Below are positions 7,021-43,397 of a stretch of 64,000 nt of DNA, piece by piece (position 1 is the first letter of the stretch; every line of letters begins with the position of its first letter). The stretch lies in the sequence record KY963424. One strand, 5' to 3'. Source of the DNA: Shigella phage SSP1. The notes beneath the pieces were generated by a model, which ran no database searches, was not told the origin of the DNA, and saw only the letters and a list, made by a program, of their open reading frames with translations. The position numbers and the translations under genes were made by a program.

Positions 7021-7040
7021 TACAGGCTTTTCAGCCGATA

Positions 7041-7065
7041 AGGAGAGCTTCGGCTCTCCTTTTTT
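7041..7065 (+). terminator. Rho-independent terminator after major capsid gene
   Basis: 8-bp GC-rich stem AGGAGAGC/GCTCTCCT with UUCG tetraloop followed by TTTTTT. Confidence 0.75.
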
Positions 7066-15780: not shown

Positions 15781-15787
15781 AACTGGA

Positions 15788-15814
15788 GGAGGACTTTGAG
15801 TCCTCCTTTTCTTT
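15788..15814 (+). terminator. Rho-independent terminator after tape measure gene
   Basis: 7-bp stem GGAGGAC/GTCCTCC, loop TTTGA, followed by TTTTCTTT. Confidence 0.65.
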
Positions 15815-34842: not shown

Positions 34843-35336
34843 AATTTTATTCTAAGTCTAGGAATTTCAGGCTCCTCTTGATGGACTTGATAAATAACAG
34901 GGCTATTATTTACCAGAATATAGCTTATATAAGCTGGAACATAGGATAATACAAATGGATATGGAACCTTAGCTACATAGCATTGGTATTTTCCGTTATA
35001 AATTCTAGCTGAATGCAAAACTTTAGAGGTGACAACATCATAGAACGTAGTTTTCTTCCAGTTAATAAGATTTCCATCAGAATCTATAAATTGGCTACGC
35101 TTTGACCCAACTAATTGAGACAACATTGATATTCTACCTCTAATAGGGTAGAGCTTGTATGGTAATTCTTTCCGTTTCTCAAATAGAATAAGCCTACGTT
35201 GAGAAAACGTGCCAGGCAACTTCCTGTTATCTAGCACATATTTATTATATCTTGTTGTAATTACGGAATAATCACCTTCTTGCTCAATTGATACAAATGC
35301 CCGTAAAGCATATACGGGCAATTTGAAATCAAGCAC
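34839..35336 (-). CDS. Hypothetical protein
   Basis: 165-aa ORF between DNA polymerase and SF2 helicase genes; overlaps both by a few nt. Confidence 0.4.
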   Translation of the reverse strand: MLDFKLPVYALRAFVSIEQEGDYSVITTRYNKYVLDNRKLPGTFSQRRLILFEKRKELPYKLYPIRGRISMLSQLVGSKRSQFIDSDGNLINWKKTTFYDVVTSKVLHSARIYNGKYQCYVAKVPYPFVLSYVPAYISYILVNNSPVIYQVHQEEPEIPRLRIKL

Positions 35337-37896
35337 CGAGAATCCTTCTCACGTTATCCAAATCTTTACATACAGCAATAAACTTATCATCCTTGTATTT
35401 GCTATGATCTGGATGCTCTTTATCCATTGCAGCTAGTTTCTTATACTCGAACTCTGCATCAAGTAATACACCCTTAACATAACGAGTATATTCATCATCA
35501 TCAATACAAGCGATTGATGGGTGCTGTTTCTTCATCTTACCACAAGAATAGTCACGAGAACCTCCAGCTTCAGAATCTGAATCAATACCAATCGGACAGC
35601 CAGGAATACTGATACCACGGTCTTTTTGAATATTACGAATCAGGATTTCATTGTATTGGTCGATCAAATCCTCACGAACAATAGCAACTACGGAGTCGTG
35701 AACCAGCATAACAATCTTCATCTCTTGTTCTAGGCCAAGAGAGATGATCTCATTATCTGCATCTACAGCCCCTAAAAGGAGACTATCAGAAGAAGCAGAC
35801 TGAATGATTGCGTTAAATCCAGAACGGATTTCTTCACCCTGAACACCACGGTCTTCGGAGTGGATATTATGCAGACGACGTTTACGACCAAAGTGACTAT
35901 AGATAAATCCATGATTCTTGATCTGATCGTGGCACTTATCAATCCAACGCTTAAGCTGTGGGAACTGACCGAAGTAAGTTTCAATGTACTCTTTAGCATC
36001 TGCAACAGTACACTCTACAAACGGTTCACCTGTCTTAGCAGCCTGTTCCAGAAGAGCTTCGTTAACAGAATGAGCTACTTTAGCTGGGCCAGAACCATAC
36101 AGAATACCAAAGGTGATTGCTTTAGCTGCTTGACGCAGAGCTGGGAATAGCTTTTTAACATCACGAGGCTCGCATTGGAGTTTAAATACCATGTGTGCGA
36201 TGTTAGAGTGGAAGTCAGGGTATTTATCTGGTTCATTTCTCATGTTGATAAATACTTGTTGCATATTTCTATCGCCAGATAGAACAGCAGCATAATAAAC
36301 TTCCGCAGTTGTTAAGTCCCATGCAATTACACGGTATCCTACAGGGGCTACTACACAACCCTTGATAATGGATTCATCACGTGGTAACTGTTGCAGGTTC
36401 AGTTTACCAGAAGAACTCAGACGACCAGAAGTAGTCATATGTTCATGGAAGCCAGTACGAATGCAACCATCAGCATCAATACTCAGAAGAATTTTCTCAA
36501 CGTAAGTAGAGATCAGCTTAGTCAGCTTACGAATCTCTAGTAGAGTCTTAGCAATTGGATGCTGCGTAGACAATTCGTTCAGAGCTTCTGCATCTGTAGA
36601 GTCTGCTCCAGTATCCGTCAATTTACCTGTTGGAGTTAACCCAACATAATCAAACAGAAGAACACGGAGTTGTTTAACAGAGTTTGGGTTAAACGCTTCG
36701 TTCTGATCTTTCTCTAGCTGAACGACTTCTGGGTAAGTATACAGCTTCTCACGGGCTTTATTCAGATTATGAGTTAACTGATACTGAGCTTCTTTCAAGC
36801 GATCAATAGAAATTGGTACACCACGATCCTCAACACGCTGGAGAAATACACAACCAGGCATTAGGACATCATAATACAGGCTGCAAAGTTTTTCATTCTT
36901 CTCAATTTTTGGTAAGAAGAAGTTGTGCAAACGTAGTGTGGCATCAGTATCTTTTGCAGCGTAAGGCCACATAATATCAAACGGAATTAAATCATAGGTG
37001 AAATCTTCTTTCTTGATTTTATGTGCTTTGCAGTAATCCTCCTTGAACTTATCTAGTTCAAAGTCATAGTCACCCATATCGGTATACTTCATTGCTAGAG
37101 ATTTCAAGCCATGAGTACCACGACGCTCATCTAGAACATAATGCTGCAACATTGTATCATGGAGCCTGCGTTCTTTATGTGCTTTATCAAAAGTAAGTCC
37201 CAGATGGTACTTATAAAAGTGCATATCAAACTTCAAGTTGTGAAAAACAATAGTGTGGTTTTCACTATCTAGAATTTTCTGGAGATAATATACTGCAACC
37301 TCTGTGAGACAATCAGAATCGATATACACACCCTGATACTCTTGGTGAGACATAGAAACACCAAGCAGATAACCATCTCGACAGTATAGTGCTGAGGTTT
37401 CGGAGTCGAATGCGACAGGTCCGATAACCATATTATACACCATCTTGATATATTCTTCCGCCTCGTCAGGGTCAGTAATAGGACGGTAATCACCAGCTTT
37501 TGCAATCTTCTCACGACCATTGATAATATCGTGGATATTTTCTACTGTTGCATCGAAAACTGGTTTCATTTCAGGCTTAAAGTGTAACTGGGCTGGGCTG
37601 ATACTCGCAATCCAGTTAGCATATCCATTATACTCTACACGTTTACCAGTATAGTCACCAATGCCTTTCTTACCTGCGAAATACAGGAAAGGTTCAGCAC
37701 CTACTAGTATAACAAAATCGTAATCATTCGGATCAAATGGGTTTTCTGGTGTTCCAATAGTAATGTGCTTTTTAAGCAAACGACCGGATAACTTTTCGTT
37801 ACACATATGGAATACATCAACTTTCTCGCCGTATAGCTGGAAATGTTTATCGTAACGAGTGTTATTTAGAGCTTTATCAACTACTGCTATTTTCAA
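35329..37896 (-). CDS. DNA polymerase, family A, with 3'-5' exonuclease domain (T5 DNA polymerase-like)
   Basis: 855 aa (same length as T5 DNA polymerase); exo motif FDSETS; pol motif A-like DLTTAEVY, motif B RQAAKAITFGILYG, motif C MLVHDS. Starts with TTG at 37894-37896, 7 nt after GAGGAG. Confidence 0.95.
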   Translation of the reverse strand: MKIAVVDKALNNTRYDKHFQLYGEKVDVFHMCNEKLSGRLLKKHITIGTPENPFDPNDYDFVILVGAEPFLYFAGKKGIGDYTGKRVEYNGYANWIASISPAQLHFKPEMKPVFDATVENIHDIINGREKIAKAGDYRPITDPDEAEEYIKMVYNMVIGPVAFDSETSALYCRDGYLLGVSMSHQEYQGVYIDSDCLTEVAVYYLQKILDSENHTIVFHNLKFDMHFYKYHLGLTFDKAHKERRLHDTMLQHYVLDERRGTHGLKSLAMKYTDMGDYDFELDKFKEDYCKAHKIKKEDFTYDLIPFDIMWPYAAKDTDATLRLHNFFLPKIEKNEKLCSLYYDVLMPGCVFLQRVEDRGVPISIDRLKEAQYQLTHNLNKAREKLYTYPEVVQLEKDQNEAFNPNSVKQLRVLLFDYVGLTPTGKLTDTGADSTDAEALNELSTQHPIAKTLLEIRKLTKLISTYVEKILLSIDADGCIRTGFHEHMTTSGRLSSSGKLNLQQLPRDESIIKGCVVAPVGYRVIAWDLTTAEVYYAAVLSGDRNMQQVFINMRNEPDKYPDFHSNIAHMVFKLQCEPRDVKKLFPALRQAAKAITFGILYGSGPAKVAHSVNEALLEQAAKTGEPFVECTVADAKEYIETYFGQFPQLKRWIDKCHDQIKNHGFIYSHFGRKRRLHNIHSEDRGVQGEEIRSGFNAIIQSASSDSLLLGAVDADNEIISLGLEQEMKIVMLVHDSVVAIVREDLIDQYNEILIRNIQKDRGISIPGCPIGIDSDSEAGGSRDYSCGKMKKQHPSIACIDDDEYTRYVKGVLLDAEFEYKKLAAMDKEHPDHSKYKDDKFIAVCKDLDNVRRILGA

Positions 37897-37957: not shown

Positions 37958-37987
37958 ATTATACCAAATCTTTAAGCGATTCAGCAA
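37958..37987 (-). promoter_or_regulatory. sigma70 early promoter for DNA polymerase gene (overlaps primase stop)
   Basis: - strand: TTGCTG - 18 bp - TATAAT, AT-rich upstream; transcript leader contains a 9-bp inverted repeat (TTGGTAAGT/ACTTACCAA) just upstream of the SD. Confidence 0.55.
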
Positions 37988-38849
37988 CTAAAATTTCAAT
38001 ACGTTTTGCTAACATATCAATTTCATCTTTGTTTAAGTCACCTGGATCTTTGCCTTCTGGTAGAAGAAAGTTAGCAACTACAGGTGTTAAACGCGTTTTT
38101 GTACGAATTAATTTGGCCAATGCTTGTGCAGCTTTATTACCAGAAGCATCATTATCTAGTAAGATAACAACAACTTTAACACCAGCAATAATATAAGGAC
38201 TGAACTTATCTGCAATGTTATCTGGAGTGAACTGATGTGTACCAAAGCAGCAAGAAGCATAGTCTATACCATTATCCTCTAGGTTCAGCATATCAAAGAT
38301 ACCTTCAACTAGGATAAGAACTGGAGTATTATATCGTACAGGGAAAATCGGTGGTGAAACTTGTTTTGGTTTTACTAAGTATTTAGGAGGGGCAGAACTG
38401 TTTATAGAACGACCCAAAAATAGGATATTGCGTCCAACAGCATCTGTGATTGGGAATACAATTCTGCCTTCCCAGTCTGCTTGGTGTTGGAAAGCAAAAT
38501 ATTTCTTCAAGGTCTTAGAACTTATACCTCGGAAATCACCTTCGAAAAGGTAAGCAGATTCAGGAATTGCAAGATTCGTAGATCCATTCCTAATCTCTGA
38601 AATCTTTTTACGTACCTGCGATAGTCTTGGGGACTGTCGGTACTGAGTCTCATTAAAATAATGGTAAATGCTCGGTATACCTTTACCGAAGCCACAACTC
38701 AAGCAGTGCATAATACCTGTTTCAGGATCAATACGCAAACTTGGGTGTTTATCGTCATGATCTGGATTGAGACAACAGATGAGGATGTCCCCACCTGTGT
38801 CTTTATATTCAATGCCTTTCAGATCAAGTAGTTCTGTTATTCTACTCAT
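37959..38849 (-). CDS. DNA primase (DnaG-like: zinc-binding + TOPRIM)
   Basis: 296 aa; CHC2 zinc finger (CCLNPDHDDKHPSLRI ... CLSCGFGKG); TOPRIM acidic residues (LVEGIFDMLNLEDNGID, ILLDNDASG). Confidence 0.8.
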   Translation of the reverse strand: MSRITELLDLKGIEYKDTGGDILICCLNPDHDDKHPSLRIDPETGIMHCLSCGFGKGIPSIYHYFNETQYRQSPRLSQVRKKISEIRNGSTNLAIPESAYLFEGDFRGISSKTLKKYFAFQHQADWEGRIVFPITDAVGRNILFLGRSINSSAPPKYLVKPKQVSPPIFPVRYNTPVLILVEGIFDMLNLEDNGIDYASCCFGTHQFTPDNIADKFSPYIIAGVKVVVILLDNDASGNKAAQALAKLIRTKTRLTPVVANFLLPEGKDPGDLNKDEIDMLAKRIEILVAESLKDLV

Positions 38850-40369
38850 ATATCGCTGGCCTGTTCACCTGTTGAATTTTCAGCTTTGTCTTTCTTAGCA
38901 CGTTTAGGTTGAGCCGGCTTATCCTTCTCAATAGGGATAACGAACTCAGCTTCCATTTGAGATATATCTTCCATTGCTAGGTTGGTAGTGTTATCCATTC
39001 GCAGAGTTTCCCAGTTCATTTTAGGCATAAACTTCACGCTATCAGAAGAACGAGTCTTAACGAAGTCAAACATAATAGCACCTTGACCATTATCAGCTTT
39101 TGCAGCATTAAGATTAGCAGCCATGTCTGCGGAATCAAGAATCCCCTTTGACATACGTGTTCTACCATCTTGATCGATCTGGTAAGGAGCTACACCAGCC
39201 ACGTTATGTTTCTGGCAGATAGATTTGAAAGACGAGCTGACAACCATCTGTTCTTTCCAGTCATACATATCAATGGTTTTAGAGTCTGGAAGTCGGGTTT
39301 GGTTAATATAGTCCAGTAAAGCTACTGTAACTTTATCACCATATCTAGCAACTAATTTATTTAGTTCTACGTCAACTGTTGTAATGGACAGTTCAGGATC
39401 ATAAACAATAATCATAGGAGTATGTAGCTCATACCCTTCTATTAGTTTACTCTCCATATCGTAGAAATCACTCATCTTAGCCATTGTGTACTGTTTAACG
39501 AAGCTATCGAAAAGCTCTTCACCACCATTAAACATTCTAGCTCTAGTTCTGGCTAATCTCAACAGAGCTGCACCTTCTAGAGTATTATTACGCATTGCTA
39601 GTGCTGATACACCTGCTAACATGGCTAAATTACGCCTAAATACTTCATGTTCTTTCATCTCAATTGAGAAGTATGGAGCAATATCCCCATTCAAATATTG
39701 CTGAACCTGTATGTTTGAACAGATAATGGATTTACCAGTACCACGCCAACCACCAAGCAGTAACGTTTCTGTGCGAGCTAAACCAATTTGAGCGTCGAAC
39801 TCATTACAAATACCAAGAGCGATTAAGTTCAGTTTGGTATCTTCTTCTCTCTGGAAAATACGCATGTTATCTGCGTTGAATACTTTTCCAGTATTCGTTA
39901 CTTTCTCTTCTAATTTTAAGTGAAGGGAGGCAACTCGGTTGAGAATTTCTCCCTGATCCAGCATTGTTAAATCTTGAAGCACGTCTGTTTCTAGAAGCTT
40001 CAGGAATAAATCCTGTGTATATTCGGCTTCTAGGACTTCAAGTGCCTGTTCCATGCTCACTTCTGGAATTTGAGTGTTAGCTAAGACGACTAGAGCTTGA
40101 GAAAGGCGGGCGTTCCTATTAGCTTCAAGCATAAGTGCGTCAATGGACGGCATTGTGTTATATTTTTTATAATAATTCTGGACGGCTTGGTAAATTGAGG
40201 AGAAAGCGTCATTAAAATGATCTTTATGCAGTTTTGAGAATGTTTCCAATGCTATTTGCTTCTGTTCGGAAGCTAGAAGCATCTTCAACACTACAGCTTG
40301 CACGTTAAACAAGGTCATTCTCCTTTGCACGCTTTCGTGCCTTCTAAATGCAAAAAGGGGAAGGAGCAT
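38846..40369 (-). CDS. Replicative DNA helicase (DnaB-like)
   Basis: Walker A GGWRGTGKS, H1a FSIEM, Walker B VALLDYINQ, H4-like APYQIDQDGR. Start ambiguous: ATG 40367-40369 (inside a hairpin loop, preceded by GGGGAGG) or ATG 40316-40318. Confidence 0.7.
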   Translation of the reverse strand: MLLPLFAFRRHESVQRRMTLFNVQAVVLKMLLASEQKQIALETFSKLHKDHFNDAFSSIYQAVQNYYKKYNTMPSIDALMLEANRNARLSQALVVLANTQIPEVSMEQALEVLEAEYTQDLFLKLLETDVLQDLTMLDQGEILNRVASLHLKLEEKVTNTGKVFNADNMRIFQREEDTKLNLIALGICNEFDAQIGLARTETLLLGGWRGTGKSIICSNIQVQQYLNGDIAPYFSIEMKEHEVFRRNLAMLAGVSALAMRNNTLEGAALLRLARTRARMFNGGEELFDSFVKQYTMAKMSDFYDMESKLIEGYELHTPMIIVYDPELSITTVDVELNKLVARYGDKVTVALLDYINQTRLPDSKTIDMYDWKEQMVVSSSFKSICQKHNVAGVAPYQIDQDGRTRMSKGILDSADMAANLNAAKADNGQGAIMFDFVKTRSSDSVKFMPKMNWETLRMDNTTNLAMEDISQMEAEFVIPIEKDKPAQPKRAKKDKAENSTGEQASDI

Positions 40370-40383
40370 AGCCCCCTCCCCTT
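40346..40383 (-). terminator. Hairpin/terminator after the 4xHTH protein gene, overlapping the helicase translation start
   Basis: - strand: 12-bp stem (AAGGGGAGGGGG / CTCCTTCCCCTT, two G-U pairs) with loop CTATG containing an ATG, followed by TTTTGCATTT. Confidence 0.5.
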
Positions 40384-40400: not shown

Positions 40401-41168
40401 TTATTCAGCAGCCGCAGCTTTTGCATCCAGTTTAGCACGCTTAGCGGCACCATCATAGTCCTTAGCAACCAGACCACGACGAGACAGCATAGATTTAACA
40501 CCACGCTCAGACTTACCAGTTTTCTCAGCGATCTCAGCAACAGTCATGTTAACCAGATCCAGACCTTCTAACAGATCTTCACGAGTTTTAGCACTTGAAG
40601 TTTCCTGTACCGGCATAGCAGCGATACGACCTTCACGAAGCAGGCTCAGAGCTTTACCACGGATCTGCTTAATATTGCGGCCGAAGTGAGCAGCGATAGC
40701 TTCAATAGTAGCACCAGCAACAACCTGATTAACAAAATCAGTTTCTTCATCCGGAGTGAAGGAACGAACAGCAGCAGCTTTTTCAGTTGGCTTAACAGAA
40801 GCGGTCATTTCCAGGCTCAGAATCTTACCCTGTACCTGCTTAGCACCGAACTGACCACCAGCTACAGCAGCAGCGATTTCAGCATAGGTATACTGACCAG
40901 CATGAGCGTTCAGGAAATCAACCAGTTCAGCTTCCTGCTCAGGAGTCCACGGGGATTTCTGTACTTCGTTAGCTTTCTGTACTTCAAAACCTTCTTTACG
41001 CAGTTTAGAGCCAACAGAGCGAGCAGTAACGTCTTTGCCAGTTTCAGCAGCCAGTTCAGTAGCGATAGCAGCTACTTGTTCTTGAGAGATTACAGCAACA
41101 CCCAGAGCAGTGGCTTTTGCTTTCAGAGACTCGGTTACACCTTCTACGTTCCAGTTCAGTTTAGACAT
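40401..41168 (-). CDS. DNA-binding protein with four tandem HTH-like repeats (T5 D5-like position, putative)
   Basis: 255 aa; four repeats resembling sigma70 region-4-type HTH (e.g. TIEAIAAHFGRNIKQIRGKALSLLREG; MTVAEIAEKTGKSERGVKSMLSRRGL); host-optimised codon usage. Confidence 0.45.
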   Translation of the reverse strand: MSKLNWNVEGVTESLKAKATALGVAVISQEQVAAIATELAAETGKDVTARSVGSKLRKEGFEVQKANEVQKSPWTPEQEAELVDFLNAHAGQYTYAEIAAAVAGGQFGAKQVQGKILSLEMTASVKPTEKAAAVRSFTPDEETDFVNQVVAGATIEAIAAHFGRNIKQIRGKALSLLREGRIAAMPVQETSSAKTREDLLEGLDLVNMTVAEIAEKTGKSERGVKSMLSRRGLVAKDYDGAAKRAKLDAKAAAAE

Positions 41169-41940
41169 TATTATTTTTCTCCAATAGTTCTTTAATCGAC
41201 AGGATTTCTATCCCATTCGTTTCGGCTTTCTTATAAGATGAGGAAGAACGTTTTGATTCATCCTCACAGATTAGGTATTTGACGTCTTTAGTAACGGATT
41301 TCTTAACCGTATACCCTAGACTTTCTAAATAGTTTGTTGCATCCGTTCTATTTGCAAAATCTTGCAAAGATCCGGTAATACATACCGCGATTCCGTTTGG
41401 CTGGGCAACTAATTCATCTGTAATTATGATATTAGCTTTTGCACCTCTGATACCAGTTGAGAATTTCCACGGTAGTTCGATAACATCCTTGCCTTGTGGG
41501 GAATTTAGCCAGGCTCTATAGTTTTCTCCAGCCTTGCCGTCAGCCTTCACATCGTGGAAGCTAGTGCAATTTTGGGATAATTTCTTTGCTGCAACCTCTC
41601 CAATTAGAGGGATTCCTAAAGAACCGAGAACTGAATCAAAGTCAATGTCTCCGCGAACTTTAGTATTTAATTCGCTAATTAACTTAGCGGCAACCTTGCT
41701 ACCCACGGCTCTAACCAAATCTTCTTCGGTTAGGTAAAACAGTTCTGAAATCTTCGTCAGCTCCAGCTTCTCAATAGTTTTTGGGCCAAAGCCCTTTAAC
41801 TTCATTTTTGTACAGAAGTTCTCAATTAACTTACTTGATTGCGCTGGACAGTTGGACTTATTCCGACAGAATAATTGTCCGTTGACAAGATCTAGCTTAG
41901 AACCACAAGAGGGACATTGTGTTGGAATTTCGATTTTCAT
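41161..41940 (-). CDS. lig: NAD-dependent DNA ligase, C-terminal part (Zn finger, HhH, BRCT) - separate ORF
   Basis: About 259 aa from ATG 41938-41940 (AAGGAAG SD); C4 zinc finger CPSCGSKLDLVNGQLFCRNKSNCPAQ, HhH region, BRCT-like C-terminus. Confidence 0.75.
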   Translation of the reverse strand: MKIEIPTQCPSCGSKLDLVNGQLFCRNKSNCPAQSSKLIENFCTKMKLKGFGPKTIEKLELTKISELFYLTEEDLVRAVGSKVAAKLISELNTKVRGDIDFDSVLGSLGIPLIGEVAAKKLSQNCTSFHDVKADGKAGENYRAWLNSPQGKDVIELPWKFSTGIRGAKANIIITDELVAQPNGIAVCITGSLQDFANRTDATNYLESLGYTVKKSVTKDVKYLICEDESKRSSSSYKKAETNGIEILSIKELLEKNNNV

Positions 41941-41970
41941 CAAATTTCTTCCTTATCAATTTATATAAAT

Positions 41971-41999
41971 ATTATAGCAAGTATTTAAGCATTTAGCAA
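41971..41999 (-). promoter_or_regulatory. sigma70 early promoter inside the gap between the two ligase ORFs
   Basis: - strand: TTGCTA - 17 bp - TATAAT with AT-rich upstream. Confidence 0.6.
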
Positions 42000-42142
42000 C
42001 TACAATTTTAACTAACTTTGCTTACCCTCGCCATAACTTTCTATCCCTCAACTGAATGATAATAGTATATACCTAAGCGGCGAAAATGTCAATAACCACT
42101 TTATAATTCCGATATGGTAGATGGGTAGCAAAGGGTTATGTA

Positions 42143-43360: not shown

Positions 43361-43397
43361 TATAAAGAAAAAGCCAAGAACTAGGCATTCTTGGCTT
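43361..43397 (-). terminator. Rho-independent terminator after PC4-like gene
   Basis: - strand: 10-bp stem AAGCCAAGAA/TTCTTGGCTT, 7-nt loop, followed by TTTCTTTATA. Confidence 0.6.

Follow-up and report, generated by a model that had tools for sequence, protein, structure and literature searches.

A conserved terminator between the D5 and helicase genes of T5-like phages, and the probable start of the helicase downstream of it

In the window, i.e. the whole 64,000-nucleotide stretch of Shigella phage SSP1 DNA that we analysed (KY963424), which belongs to a T5-like phage (Tequintavirus), the gene for the multi-HTH protein D5 is followed by a hairpin that carries a purine-rich tract in its 5' arm and an ATG in its loop. 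The locus raises the question of whether this hairpin is a transcription terminator, a device that hides the ribosome-binding site (RBS) of the next gene, a DnaB-like helicase, or both. The initial annotation proposed both, with translation of the helicase coupled to termination efficiency. Its placing of the purine-rich 5' arm, the loop ATG and the U-tract, all on the - strand, was confirmed. Taken as a whole, the locus can with good probability be read as a terminator after D5, a loop ATG that is there by coincidence, a helicase start further downstream and a supply of helicase by read-through. The features that bear on the hairpin are as follows.

40401..41168, - strand: D5 gene, 255 aa, multi-HTH DNA-binding protein, TAA stop at 40403-40401 (open reading frame list, Pfam)
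40355..40383, - strand: terminator stem-loop, 13 bp including 2 G.U, loop UAU (fold, scan, annotation)
40383-40371, - strand: 5' arm of the hairpin, AAGGGGAGGGGGC
40370-40368, - strand: loop of the hairpin, UAU
40367-40355, - strand: 3' arm of the hairpin, GCUCCUUCCCCUU
40346..40356, - strand: terminator U-tract, TTTTTGCATTT, its first two T being paired to the AA at the foot of the stem
40367..40369, - strand: loop ATG, a fortuitous start codon at the junction of loop and 3' arm, annotated as the helicase start in many records

Structure and conservation of the terminator

With a folding energy of -22.5 kcal/mol (z = -3.9), the hairpin was matched by none of 200 dinucleotide shuffles, which places its stability far above the chance level. 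The stem is GC-rich, with G-C pairs at 8 of its 13 positions, and the U-tract UUUUUGCAUUU starts inside the last two stem pairs, so that the five-T run at 40356-40352 lies partly in these pairs; it is followed by GCATTT. A terminator scan also detected the hairpin at 40383-40355, and no terminator-like hairpin in the 64-kb window is more stable. The stem begins 17 nt past the TAA of D5 on the same strand, beyond the footprint of a ribosome terminating there. Read in the antisense direction, the hairpin contains two A.C mismatches, folds at only -15.6 kcal/mol and has no U-tract. The upstream gene matches the Sigma70_r4_2, Myb and HTH families in Pfam, and is annotated as 'D5 protein' in the T5 record NC_005859 and in many others.

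We compared the folds of the individual lineages, as a MAFFT alignment of the terminator was out of structural register and was not used. In every Demerecviridae lineage examined, D5 is separated from the DnaB-like helicase gene by an equivalent terminator, with stem sequences that differ and are compensated. At this junction a hairpin of -14 to -24 kcal/mol with a U-tract is found in Tequintavirus, KKP_3711, Sugarlandvirus, Hongcheonvirus, Novosibvirus and L044, and also in three lineages of Vibrio phages and at two distant metagenomic loci, L083 and L084; for L087 the terminator finder returned none, and a hairpin of this kind is visible only when the whole region is folded. In total, more than 10 lineages have distinct stems at this locus. 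Covariation is also seen between close relatives: the allele of Gostya9 and phiR2-01, carried by at least 6 phages, turns one A-U pair into U-A and interchanges a G.U and a G-C pair, and still has 13 bp at -22.7 kcal/mol. Four single-base homopolymer deletions in this region of MET_P1-197_41 (L095) were taken as assembly errors and ignored, and Aeromonas phage AhP_Mru1 (L008) was left out on account of its fragmented open reading frames.

The hairpin and its U-tract are therefore a conserved, one-directional Rho-independent terminator by stability, U-tract, position and compensated conservation, at which the transcript of the multi-HTH gene (D5 of T5) would be released; this part of the initial annotation holds. 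As a terminator of T5-like phages the hairpin is already known, being marked as such in GenBank for Lindwurm, Spivey and AKFV33. These annotated terminators all lie 3' of the D5 stop and are identical in sequence to the hairpin described here (AKFV33, Lindwurm) or homologous to it (Spivey), and the label 'terminator ... overlaps 5'-end of orf122' in AKFV33 (HQ665011) refers to the same element in the same place. There is no difference in the element itself; only the annotators' start of the helicase is in dispute. A search of Rfam 15 with the hairpin region gave two matches, both at chance level (E = 0.8, 16-18 bits, as compared with gathering scores of 40-41), and our literature search found no published experiment that maps the 3' or the 5' ends of transcripts at the T5 locus.

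We also considered whether the hairpin could belong to an attenuator, and rejected this. For an attenuator with an antiterminator, neither arm found a competing partner in regional folds and the hairpin was present in both the minimum free energy and the centroid structure, and the upstream 3' end of D5 contains no pyrimidine-rich complement. For an attenuator with a leader peptide, the reading frames that open at the loop ATG or TTG differ between lineages: they may be present or absent and in one frame or another, and they are 8-16 codons long or run on into the helicase.

The start codon of the helicase

The candidate signals for helicase translation, together with the gene itself, are listed here.

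40320..40325, - strand: Shine-Dalgarno (SD) sequence AAGGAG of the helicase gene, annotated as RBS in Lindwurm and phiR2-01
40316..40318, - strand: ATG, alternative and less likely start (490 aa, MTLFNVQ...), 1 nt past the SD, annotated in GSW6
40310..40312, - strand: TTG, most probable helicase start, homologous to the start codon of all relatives, 7 nt past AAGGAG
38846..40312, - strand: DnaB-like replicative helicase (T5 'D6'/dnaB), 488 aa from the TTG (Pfam DnaB_C, annotations)

Comparison with homologues defines the N-terminus of the helicase. Throughout the homologues it reads M-[FYI]-N-V-Q-A-V-V-L-K and aligns at TTG 40312-40310, and homology in tblastn begins at residue 20 of the 507-aa version of the protein. 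KKP_3711 has ATG TTC AAT at the TTG position with AGGA 6 nt upstream; the variants with a homing-endonuclease insertion (L011, L034, L043), in which the whole intergenic region is replaced, start with ATG TTT AAC; and in L087 the start is a TTG immediately after an in-frame TGA. From AAGGAG to TTG 40312 the aligned spacing is 5, the optimum, with a hybridisation energy of -8.7 kcal/mol. The RBS scores, calculated with a rough and simplified re-implementation in the style of the RBS calculator that omits the standby-site and final-state terms, were (in kcal/mol, lower being better) about +6.6 for TTG 40312, +11.3 for GTG 40330, +12.7 for the loop ATG and +15.2 for ATG 40318. In the curated annotations of Lindwurm and phiR2-01, the RBS and CDS features likewise combine AGGAG with the TTG. 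Most likely, then, the helicase starts about 55 bases downstream of the loop ATG at its own ribosome-binding site, and by these comparisons TTG 40312-40310 is the codon that we would favour, with somewhat better than even confidence. GTG 40330 and TTG 40312-40310 are further in-frame starts that the initial annotation had missed, and on identical DNA GenBank holds three different annotated start codons for the helicase.

The case for the loop ATG, according to which the GGAGG of the 5' arm serves a helicase start at 40369 and is locked in the hairpin in read-through transcripts, begins with its sequence. The ATG (40369-40367) has its A and U in the loop, unpaired, and its G opens the 3' arm; it shares the helicase frame with no intervening stop, giving 507 aa, and lies 5 nt downstream of a GGAGG whose hybridisation with the anti-SD is strong (-11.7 kcal/mol). 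It is invariant across the T5 clade, and many GenBank records, among them both T5 references, annotate it as the start. However, none of the homologues compared has anything that corresponds to the extension of 17-19 codons, and the loop ATG itself is absent from most lineages examined, namely Spivey, DU_PP_V, L040, PL1, L044, KIT04 and Pontus (in Proteus phage PL1 by a single base, the loop being CTTTG where T5 has CTATG), while in KKP_3711 and L059 it opens a reading frame of just 8-9 codons. The Gostya9/phiR2-01 allele turns GGAGG into GGTGG and keeps the stem. Three records (GSW6, PHZ191, OR896837) contain an extra T that shifts the loop ATG out of frame, a 6-T variant that may be a homopolymer sequencing error, as two records of phage mar004NP2 conflict over it. 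Phages with the homing-endonuclease variants lack the region altogether, yet are viable. The probability that the GGAGG in the stem is unpaired is 0.00. None of the 19 third codon positions of the would-be extension (57 nt) is variable, as compared with 84/256 and 96/304 (∼32%) in the flanking genes, although a codon-level test within the T5 clade is excluded because the 88-nt intergenic region is invariant there. Nor does the association of an SD-like tract and a start codon within one hairpin exceed chance: four further terminator-like hairpins in the window have 5' arms of the AAGGAG, GAGGAGG or AGAGGGG type, one of them with a TTG in its loop, and by our own estimate the chance that 17 codons upstream of an open reading frame are free of stops is about 0.44, i.e. 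(61/64)^17. The purine richness of the 5' arm simply reflects its place as the G-rich strand of a G-rich/pyrimidine-rich stem, and the ATG in the loop is accidental. As the start of the helicase, the loop ATG is at best very improbable, and its combination with a sequestering hairpin is more improbable still. The proposals of the initial annotation that the hairpin tract and loop ATG serve as SD and start, and that RBS sequestration couples helicase translation to termination, thus find no support, as the ATG in the hairpin is not the conserved start of the downstream protein and the GGAGG of the stem is not conserved as an SD.

A more serious competitor is ATG 40318-40316, which would leave the terminator as described and yield MTLFNVQ... 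instead of a protein starting at the TTG. ATG is the best initiator codon and intrinsically better than TTG; this one is conserved in all T5-like genomes with a predicted unpaired probability of 0.98, and the relatives L044 and PL1 have just 2-3 nt from GGAG to ATG. Set against this are its position 1 nt after AAGGAG (aligned spacing about -1) with no other SD upstream, the extra M-T residues, which have no counterpart in any homologue, the fact that KKP_3711 and the homing-endonuclease variants start where the TTG lies, and the use of TTG in the curated annotations. ATG 40318-40316 is for these reasons a possible but distinctly less likely start, and the reading that pairs it with the terminator is, by a shade, less likely again. 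Its product would be recognisable by the N-terminal peptides MTLFNVQAVVLK or TLFNVQAVVLK. The initial annotation, which had named this ATG as the alternative to the loop ATG, came close to the mark with a downstream start; the best-supported codon is, however, the TTG, and the element before the ATG is AAGGAG (40325-40320) followed by one A and not AAGGGA.

Both the loop ATG and ATG 40318 are perfectly conserved within the T5 clade, and a search for natural variants at ATG 40318 or TTG 40312 gave no informative case: the 25 loci from a pattern scan of IMG/VR had identical intergenic regions, as had the 7 from a metagenome scan. No N-terminal data for the helicase of the T5 locus were found in the literature search, the supplementary tables of CRISPRi-ART contained no spacers matching the helicase RBS, and a PDB sequence search with the helicase returned no match and hence no construct boundaries.

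Probable transcription across the terminator

Three further features, all on the - strand, concern the supply of transcripts to the helicase gene.

41971..41999, - strand: sigma-70 promoter TTGCTA-17-TATAAT, 5' of ligB, found by scan, counterpart of T5 P-K28a (T5 and AKFV33 annotations)
42064..42092, - strand: second sigma-70 promoter TTGACA-17-TATACT, found by scan, counterpart of T5 P-K28b (T5 annotation)
37959..38849, - strand: DnaG-type primase (Toprim, Zn_ribbon_DnaG), whose start overlaps the helicase stop

The ligB-D5 transcript probably originates at the promoter at 41971..41999. From 41971 as far as the helicase start, the scan, which recognises near-consensus sigma-70 sites and can be escaped by atypical ones, found no - strand promoter, and the promoter annotations of T5 st0 and AKFV33 have sites ahead of ligB and pol but not ahead of the helicase or the primase gene. 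We propose that the terminator at 40383-40355 closes a strongly transcribed ligB-D5 unit driven by promoters of the P-K28a/b type, and that translation of the helicase begins downstream, at the AAGGAG of 40325-40320, and not within the hairpin. Because there is no promoter between the terminator and the helicase-primase pair, both genes would be reached only by those RNA polymerases that read through the terminator. The read-through fraction and the weak TTG start would then together keep the two catalytic proteins, helicase and primase, at levels far lower than that of D5, the abundant DNA-binding protein. In proteomics of phiR2-01, D5 (Gp110) ranks among the most abundant proteins (PMC8624392).

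Two explanations would give the region a different role. The hairpin might be a stabiliser of the D5 mRNA 3' end or a barrier to processing, or the helicase might have an unrecognised promoter, so that read-through would not set its level. Stable 3' hairpins do shield mRNAs from 3' exonucleases, and the bias of the promoter scan towards near-consensus sites leaves room for a promoter of the helicase's own; moreover, more than 400 T5-like genomes show no variation over the 133 nt from 40407 to 40275, which hints at a function beyond that of a plain terminator. On the other side, a GC-rich stem followed by U5 is the canonical architecture of a terminator and is kept across lineages, the two independent promoter annotations have no site there, and downstream of the hairpin there is no room for a promoter because the U-tract and the SD are only ∼30 nt apart. 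We regard this explanation as unlikely.

The same invariance would be explained if the region formed one regulatory RNA unit, made up of the terminator, an A/U-rich spacer, a small hairpin (40340-40327), AAGGAG-TTG and the first 12 codons of the helicase. One possibility is a switch of read-through or translation operated by a protein, for example D5 or the helicase; another is that a 30S subunit, bound to the nascent terminator at its SD-like 5' arm, sets the dosage of helicase and primase. The small hairpin lies between the terminator and the SD as follows.

40327..40340, - strand: small hairpin GCACG-AAAG-CGTGC, -5.8 kcal/mol

A hairpin of other sequence lies at this position in 7 of 8 enterobacterial-type lineages, and its stability within each lineage is in most cases no better than that of shuffles (p 0.05-0.57). 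We consider such a unit, in either form, slightly less likely again than a stabiliser or an unrecognised promoter, and retain as preferred the reading with a terminator and read-through.

Related systems and significance

The arrangement resembles the rpsU-dnaG-rpoD (macromolecular synthesis) operon of E. coli, which contains an internal attenuating terminator with documented partial read-through. In both cases the gene for an abundant product (S21 there, D5 here) precedes a terminator, beyond which lie genes for low-copy replication enzymes (primase there, helicase and primase here) that lack a promoter of their own and have weak translation signals. The genes and the organism are different, there is no sequence relationship, and for the phage the read-through is what we infer from the layout. 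The locus also recalls hairpins that sequester an RBS, i.e. translational operators, thermosensors and the replicase/coat elements of MS2, in that an SD-like tract and an AUG lie in a stable hairpin. In those systems, however, the sequestered AUG is the conserved and used start of a conserved protein, whereas in the phage hairpin the AUG and the extension are not conserved, the SD-like tract can be lost, and an accessible SD and start lie downstream.

The finding is one of ordinary biology combined with a widespread mis-annotation of a start codon, and its chief value is practical. Both T5 reference records and many annotations derived from them place the start of the helicase inside the terminator, which gives the replicative helicase a spurious 19-residue N-terminus, MLLPLFAFRRHESVQRRMT; expression or modelling of the protein should begin at MFNVQ. 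For the phage itself, the layout of an abundant D5, a terminator, a promoter-less helicase-primase pair and a weak TTG would amount to a tidy and conventional form of dosage control in a phage replication operon.

Gene order and the intergenic hairpin

The sequence search gave ~500 near-full-length matches to T5-like phages (Tequintavirus, Demerecviridae), to which the region is 99% identical. The - strand gene order is ligB, D5, DnaB-like helicase, primase and DNA polymerase; the '4xHTH gene' of the initial annotation is T5 D5, described in the NC_005859 record as a DNA-binding protein needed for replication and late transcription.

Features of the locus (genes from ORFs, Pfam and annotation; promoters from a promoter scan and T5 annotation; terminator hairpin from sequence inspection)
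42092-42064, - strand: strong sigma-70 promoter, counterpart of T5 P-K28b
41999-41971, - strand: strong sigma-70 promoter, counterpart of T5 P-K28a
41161-41943, - strand: ligB
40401-41168, - strand: D5, 255 aa
40383-40371, - strand: hairpin 5' arm, AAGGGGAGGGGGC
40369-40367, - strand: loop ATG, spanning the loop and the first base of the 3' arm
40367-40355, - strand: hairpin 3' arm, GCUCCUUCCCCUU, after the loop UAU; UUUUUGCAUUU lies directly 3' of the stem
40340-40327, - strand: small hairpin GCACG-AAAG-CGTGC, -5.8 kcal/mol, between terminator and SD
40318-40316, - strand: second ATG, with AAGGAG (40325-40320) and one A ahead of it
38846 to ~40312, - strand: DnaB-like helicase
37959-38849, - strand: primase
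35329-37896, - strand: DNA polymerase

The arms, loop ATG, U-tract and second ATG named in the initial annotation are thus all present. Folding gave -22.5 kcal/mol for the hairpin (z = -3.9; none of 200 shuffles equalled it), which was called by the terminator scan and is the most stable of the terminator-like hairpins in the 64-kb window. The antisense hairpin reaches only -15.6 kcal/mol, as two G.U pairs become A.C mismatches, and has no U-tract, so the element has a direction, the one in which the genes run. A separate hairpin at 43371-43397 (AAGCCAAGAA...TTCTTGGCTT), with A/T runs on either side, scores as a terminator on both strands and so is probably bidirectional.

Conservation of the junction

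We compared D5-helicase junctions from annotated phage records, 79 IMG/VR loci and 7 metagenome contigs. Between the D5 homologue and the helicase, a strong hairpin (-14 to -24 kcal/mol) with a U-tract after it is present in Tequintavirus, Epseptimavirus, Enterobacter phage KKP_3711, L044, Sugarlandvirus (Spivey, L042), Hongcheonvirus (DU_PP_V, L040), Novosibvirus (PL1), three Vibrio-phage lineages (KIT04, Pontus, L059) and two distant metagenomic relatives, L083 and L084; in another distant relative, L087, a comparable hairpin appeared in the whole-region fold only and the terminator finder returned none. The stems differ in sequence between lineages while pairing is kept, e.g. GGGGAGGGGGC/GCUCCUUCCCC, GGGGAGAGGAA/UUCCUCUCCCC, GGGGAUGGGGC/GUCCCAUCCCC and GGGAGGAGGGC/GCUCUCCUCCC. 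One alternative allele within the genus, AAGGGGUGGGGGC-UAU-GCCUCUACCCCUU (Gostya9, phiR2-01, Kenya-K36/38/42/45 and smaug), has one A-U pair turned to U-A and a G.U and a G-C pair exchanged, and retains 13 bp at -22.7 kcal/mol. The element is already marked as a terminator in several GenBank records, including that of AKFV33, which notes 'overlaps 5'-end of orf122'. Judged from sequence, the proposal that the hairpin after the multi-HTH gene is a terminator appears sound: the structure is real, looks functional and is already known as a conserved, annotated intrinsic terminator.

In the 4.5 kb compared across 17-29 distinct T5-like sequences, invariance extends furthest over 133 nt (40407-40275, - strand), which take in the D5 stop, terminator, spacer, small hairpin, SD, start and the first 12 codons of the helicase; no site varies there, against ~32% of the third codon positions to either side. 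Identity in a 110-nt core is at least 99% for 409 of 426 phage records, and the 117-nt stretch that a pattern scan recovered is the same in each of the 7 metagenome contigs. Such strong junction conservation may be general in the T5-like group, since the second longest run is the ligB/D5 overlap (41238-41119, 120 nt). The small hairpin keeps its position, though not its sequence, in 7 of 8 enterobacterial-type lineages; in KKP_3711, Spivey, L042, L040, PL1 and L044 a short GC-rich hairpin ends 12-19 nt before the start codon. It is absent from the Vibrio phages, and its stability in individual lineages was not significantly above that of shuffles (p 0.05-0.57).

The helicase start

The initial annotation also held that the hairpin contains the helicase SD (GGAGG, in the 5' arm) and start, coupling helicase translation to termination; homology, alleles and frame variants oppose this. 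In a helicase alignment spanning five genera, residues 1-19 of the 507-aa version that begins at the loop ATG have no counterpart. All other helicases start M-[YIF]-N-V-Q-A/S-V/I-V-L-K, aligned to TTG-TTT-AAC-GTG-CAA in the window, and tblastn homology to more distant loci begins at residues 20-22 (507-aa numbering). The loop ATG is lineage-specific: other loops read UUUUG, AUUUG, UUUUUG, CUUUG, UUAAU, AUU or GCAU, and CUAUG of T5 is a single base from CUUUG of PL1. Where KKP_3711 and L059 have a loop ATG, only 8-9 codons follow before a stop. The Vibrio-type L059 (IMGVR_UViG_2706795039) is the sole case in which a loop-initiated mini-ORF (MPPFLLSEQ, 9 codons) could couple to the helicase start, its TAA overlapping the helicase ATG (TAATG), an overlap that we judge coincidental.

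In the Gostya9/phiR2-01 allele GGAGG has become GGTGG with the stem compensated, i.e. the SD-like motif is lost and the stem kept; selection is thus on pairing rather than on an SD. In GSW6, PHZ191 and one of two mar004NP2 records the U-tract has 6 T, so that the loop ATG is out of frame; given the 5 T of the second mar004NP2 record, a homopolymer error could be the cause. PV654516, L034 and L043, with flanking genes 98-99% identical, carry an HNH homing-endonuclease cassette in place of the whole D5-helicase intergenic region, and their helicase starts at ATG-TTT-AAC, the ATG overlapping the endonuclease stop (TAATG); an N-terminus of MFNVQ... therefore suffices. The endonuclease gene (1250-1890 in L011, the PV654516 locus) carries its own terminator, AAGGAGAAC-TTCG-GTTCTCCTT. 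In a set of 29 distinct T5-like sequences, variable third codon positions number 84/256 for D5, 96/304 for the helicase and 0/19 for the stretch between the loop ATG and the TTG (p ~7e-4 if coding at the same rate); by this comparison the stretch appears to be under constraint as nucleic acid rather than as a reading frame. Folding of the read-through RNA gave the GGAGG an unpaired probability of 0.00.

The helicase SD is best read as AAGGAG (40325-40320, - strand). TTG 40312 lies 7 nt past it (aligned spacing 5, optimal under the Salis spacing model), and ATG 40318 1 nt past it (aligned spacing ~-1), with no alternative SD upstream for that ATG.

Start codons ranked by a simplified RBS-calculator-style score (lower is better)
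TTG 40312, - strand: +6.6 kcal/mol
GTG 40330, - strand: +11.3 kcal/mol
Loop ATG 40369, - strand: +12.7 kcal/mol
ATG 40318, - strand: +15.2 kcal/mol

KKP_3711 has ATG at the TTG position, with its SD (AGGA) 6 nt off; L087 has a TTG start right after an in-frame TGA; and the Lindwurm and phiR2-01 records, both curated by hand and with the RBS given as a feature, chose AGGAG and TTG. We consider TTG 40312 the probable start and ATG 40318 a possible but less likely one; initiation at the loop ATG is very improbable, and a start elsewhere has only a slight chance.

Annotation and expected expression

Purine-rich 5' arms with CUCCUU-type 3' arms running into a U-tract are common among the window's terminator-like hairpins. 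The hairpin scan gave four with SD-like 5' arms (AAGGAG.., GAGGAGG.., AGAGGGG.. types; 3' arms ..CTCCTT into a T-tract).

Terminator-like hairpins with SD-like 5' arms
7040-7061, + strand
15786-15808, + strand, with TTG in the loop
58309-58330, + strand
32213-32194, - strand

The upstream extension of the helicase amounts to only 17 stop-free codons (chance probability ~0.44). A gene caller geared to the longest ORF with a strong SD motif will choose the loop ATG, hence the 507-aa annotation in T5 and many derivatives. Annotation of the locus is inconsistent across AY692264, NC_005859, HQ665011, OK143207, HE956708, OQ362005, PP502408 and MT311645, and three different helicase starts are annotated on identical DNA. 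The ligB start (41941-41943, - strand) is ambiguous too: the longest ORF runs from TTG (260 aa), as in T5 st0, and Lindwurm and AKFV33 annotate it shorter. The helicase is labelled 'D5 protein' in AY692264 and 'DNA replication primase' in PL1, and D5 'portal vertex protein' in vB_Sen-E22. The T5-like intergenic region also occurs, 100% identical, in OR848168.1 ('Listeria phage LM 4-14-1', 13.6 kb) and two 'Campylobacter' records, whose host labels are implausible, so that contamination or mislabelling is probable. The practical gain is a corrected start for the helicase and a flag on the inconsistent annotations.

The promoter scan found no promoter-like site on the - strand between the P-K28-type promoters and the helicase start, only ~30 nt separate the U-tract from the helicase SD, and the next promoter in the T5 st0 and AKFV33 annotations precedes pol, at the primase 3' end. 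With a strong terminator before it and the next promoter after it, the helicase-primase pair would be transcribed by read-through only. The E. coli macromolecular-synthesis operon has a terminator between rpsU and dnaG, and the D5-terminator-helicase arrangement may follow a similar logic. Proteomics of phiR2-01 placed D5, a stoichiometric DNA-binding protein, among the most abundant proteins of the phage (PMC8624392). Through read-through together with a TTG start, the two catalytic proteins would stay well below D5.
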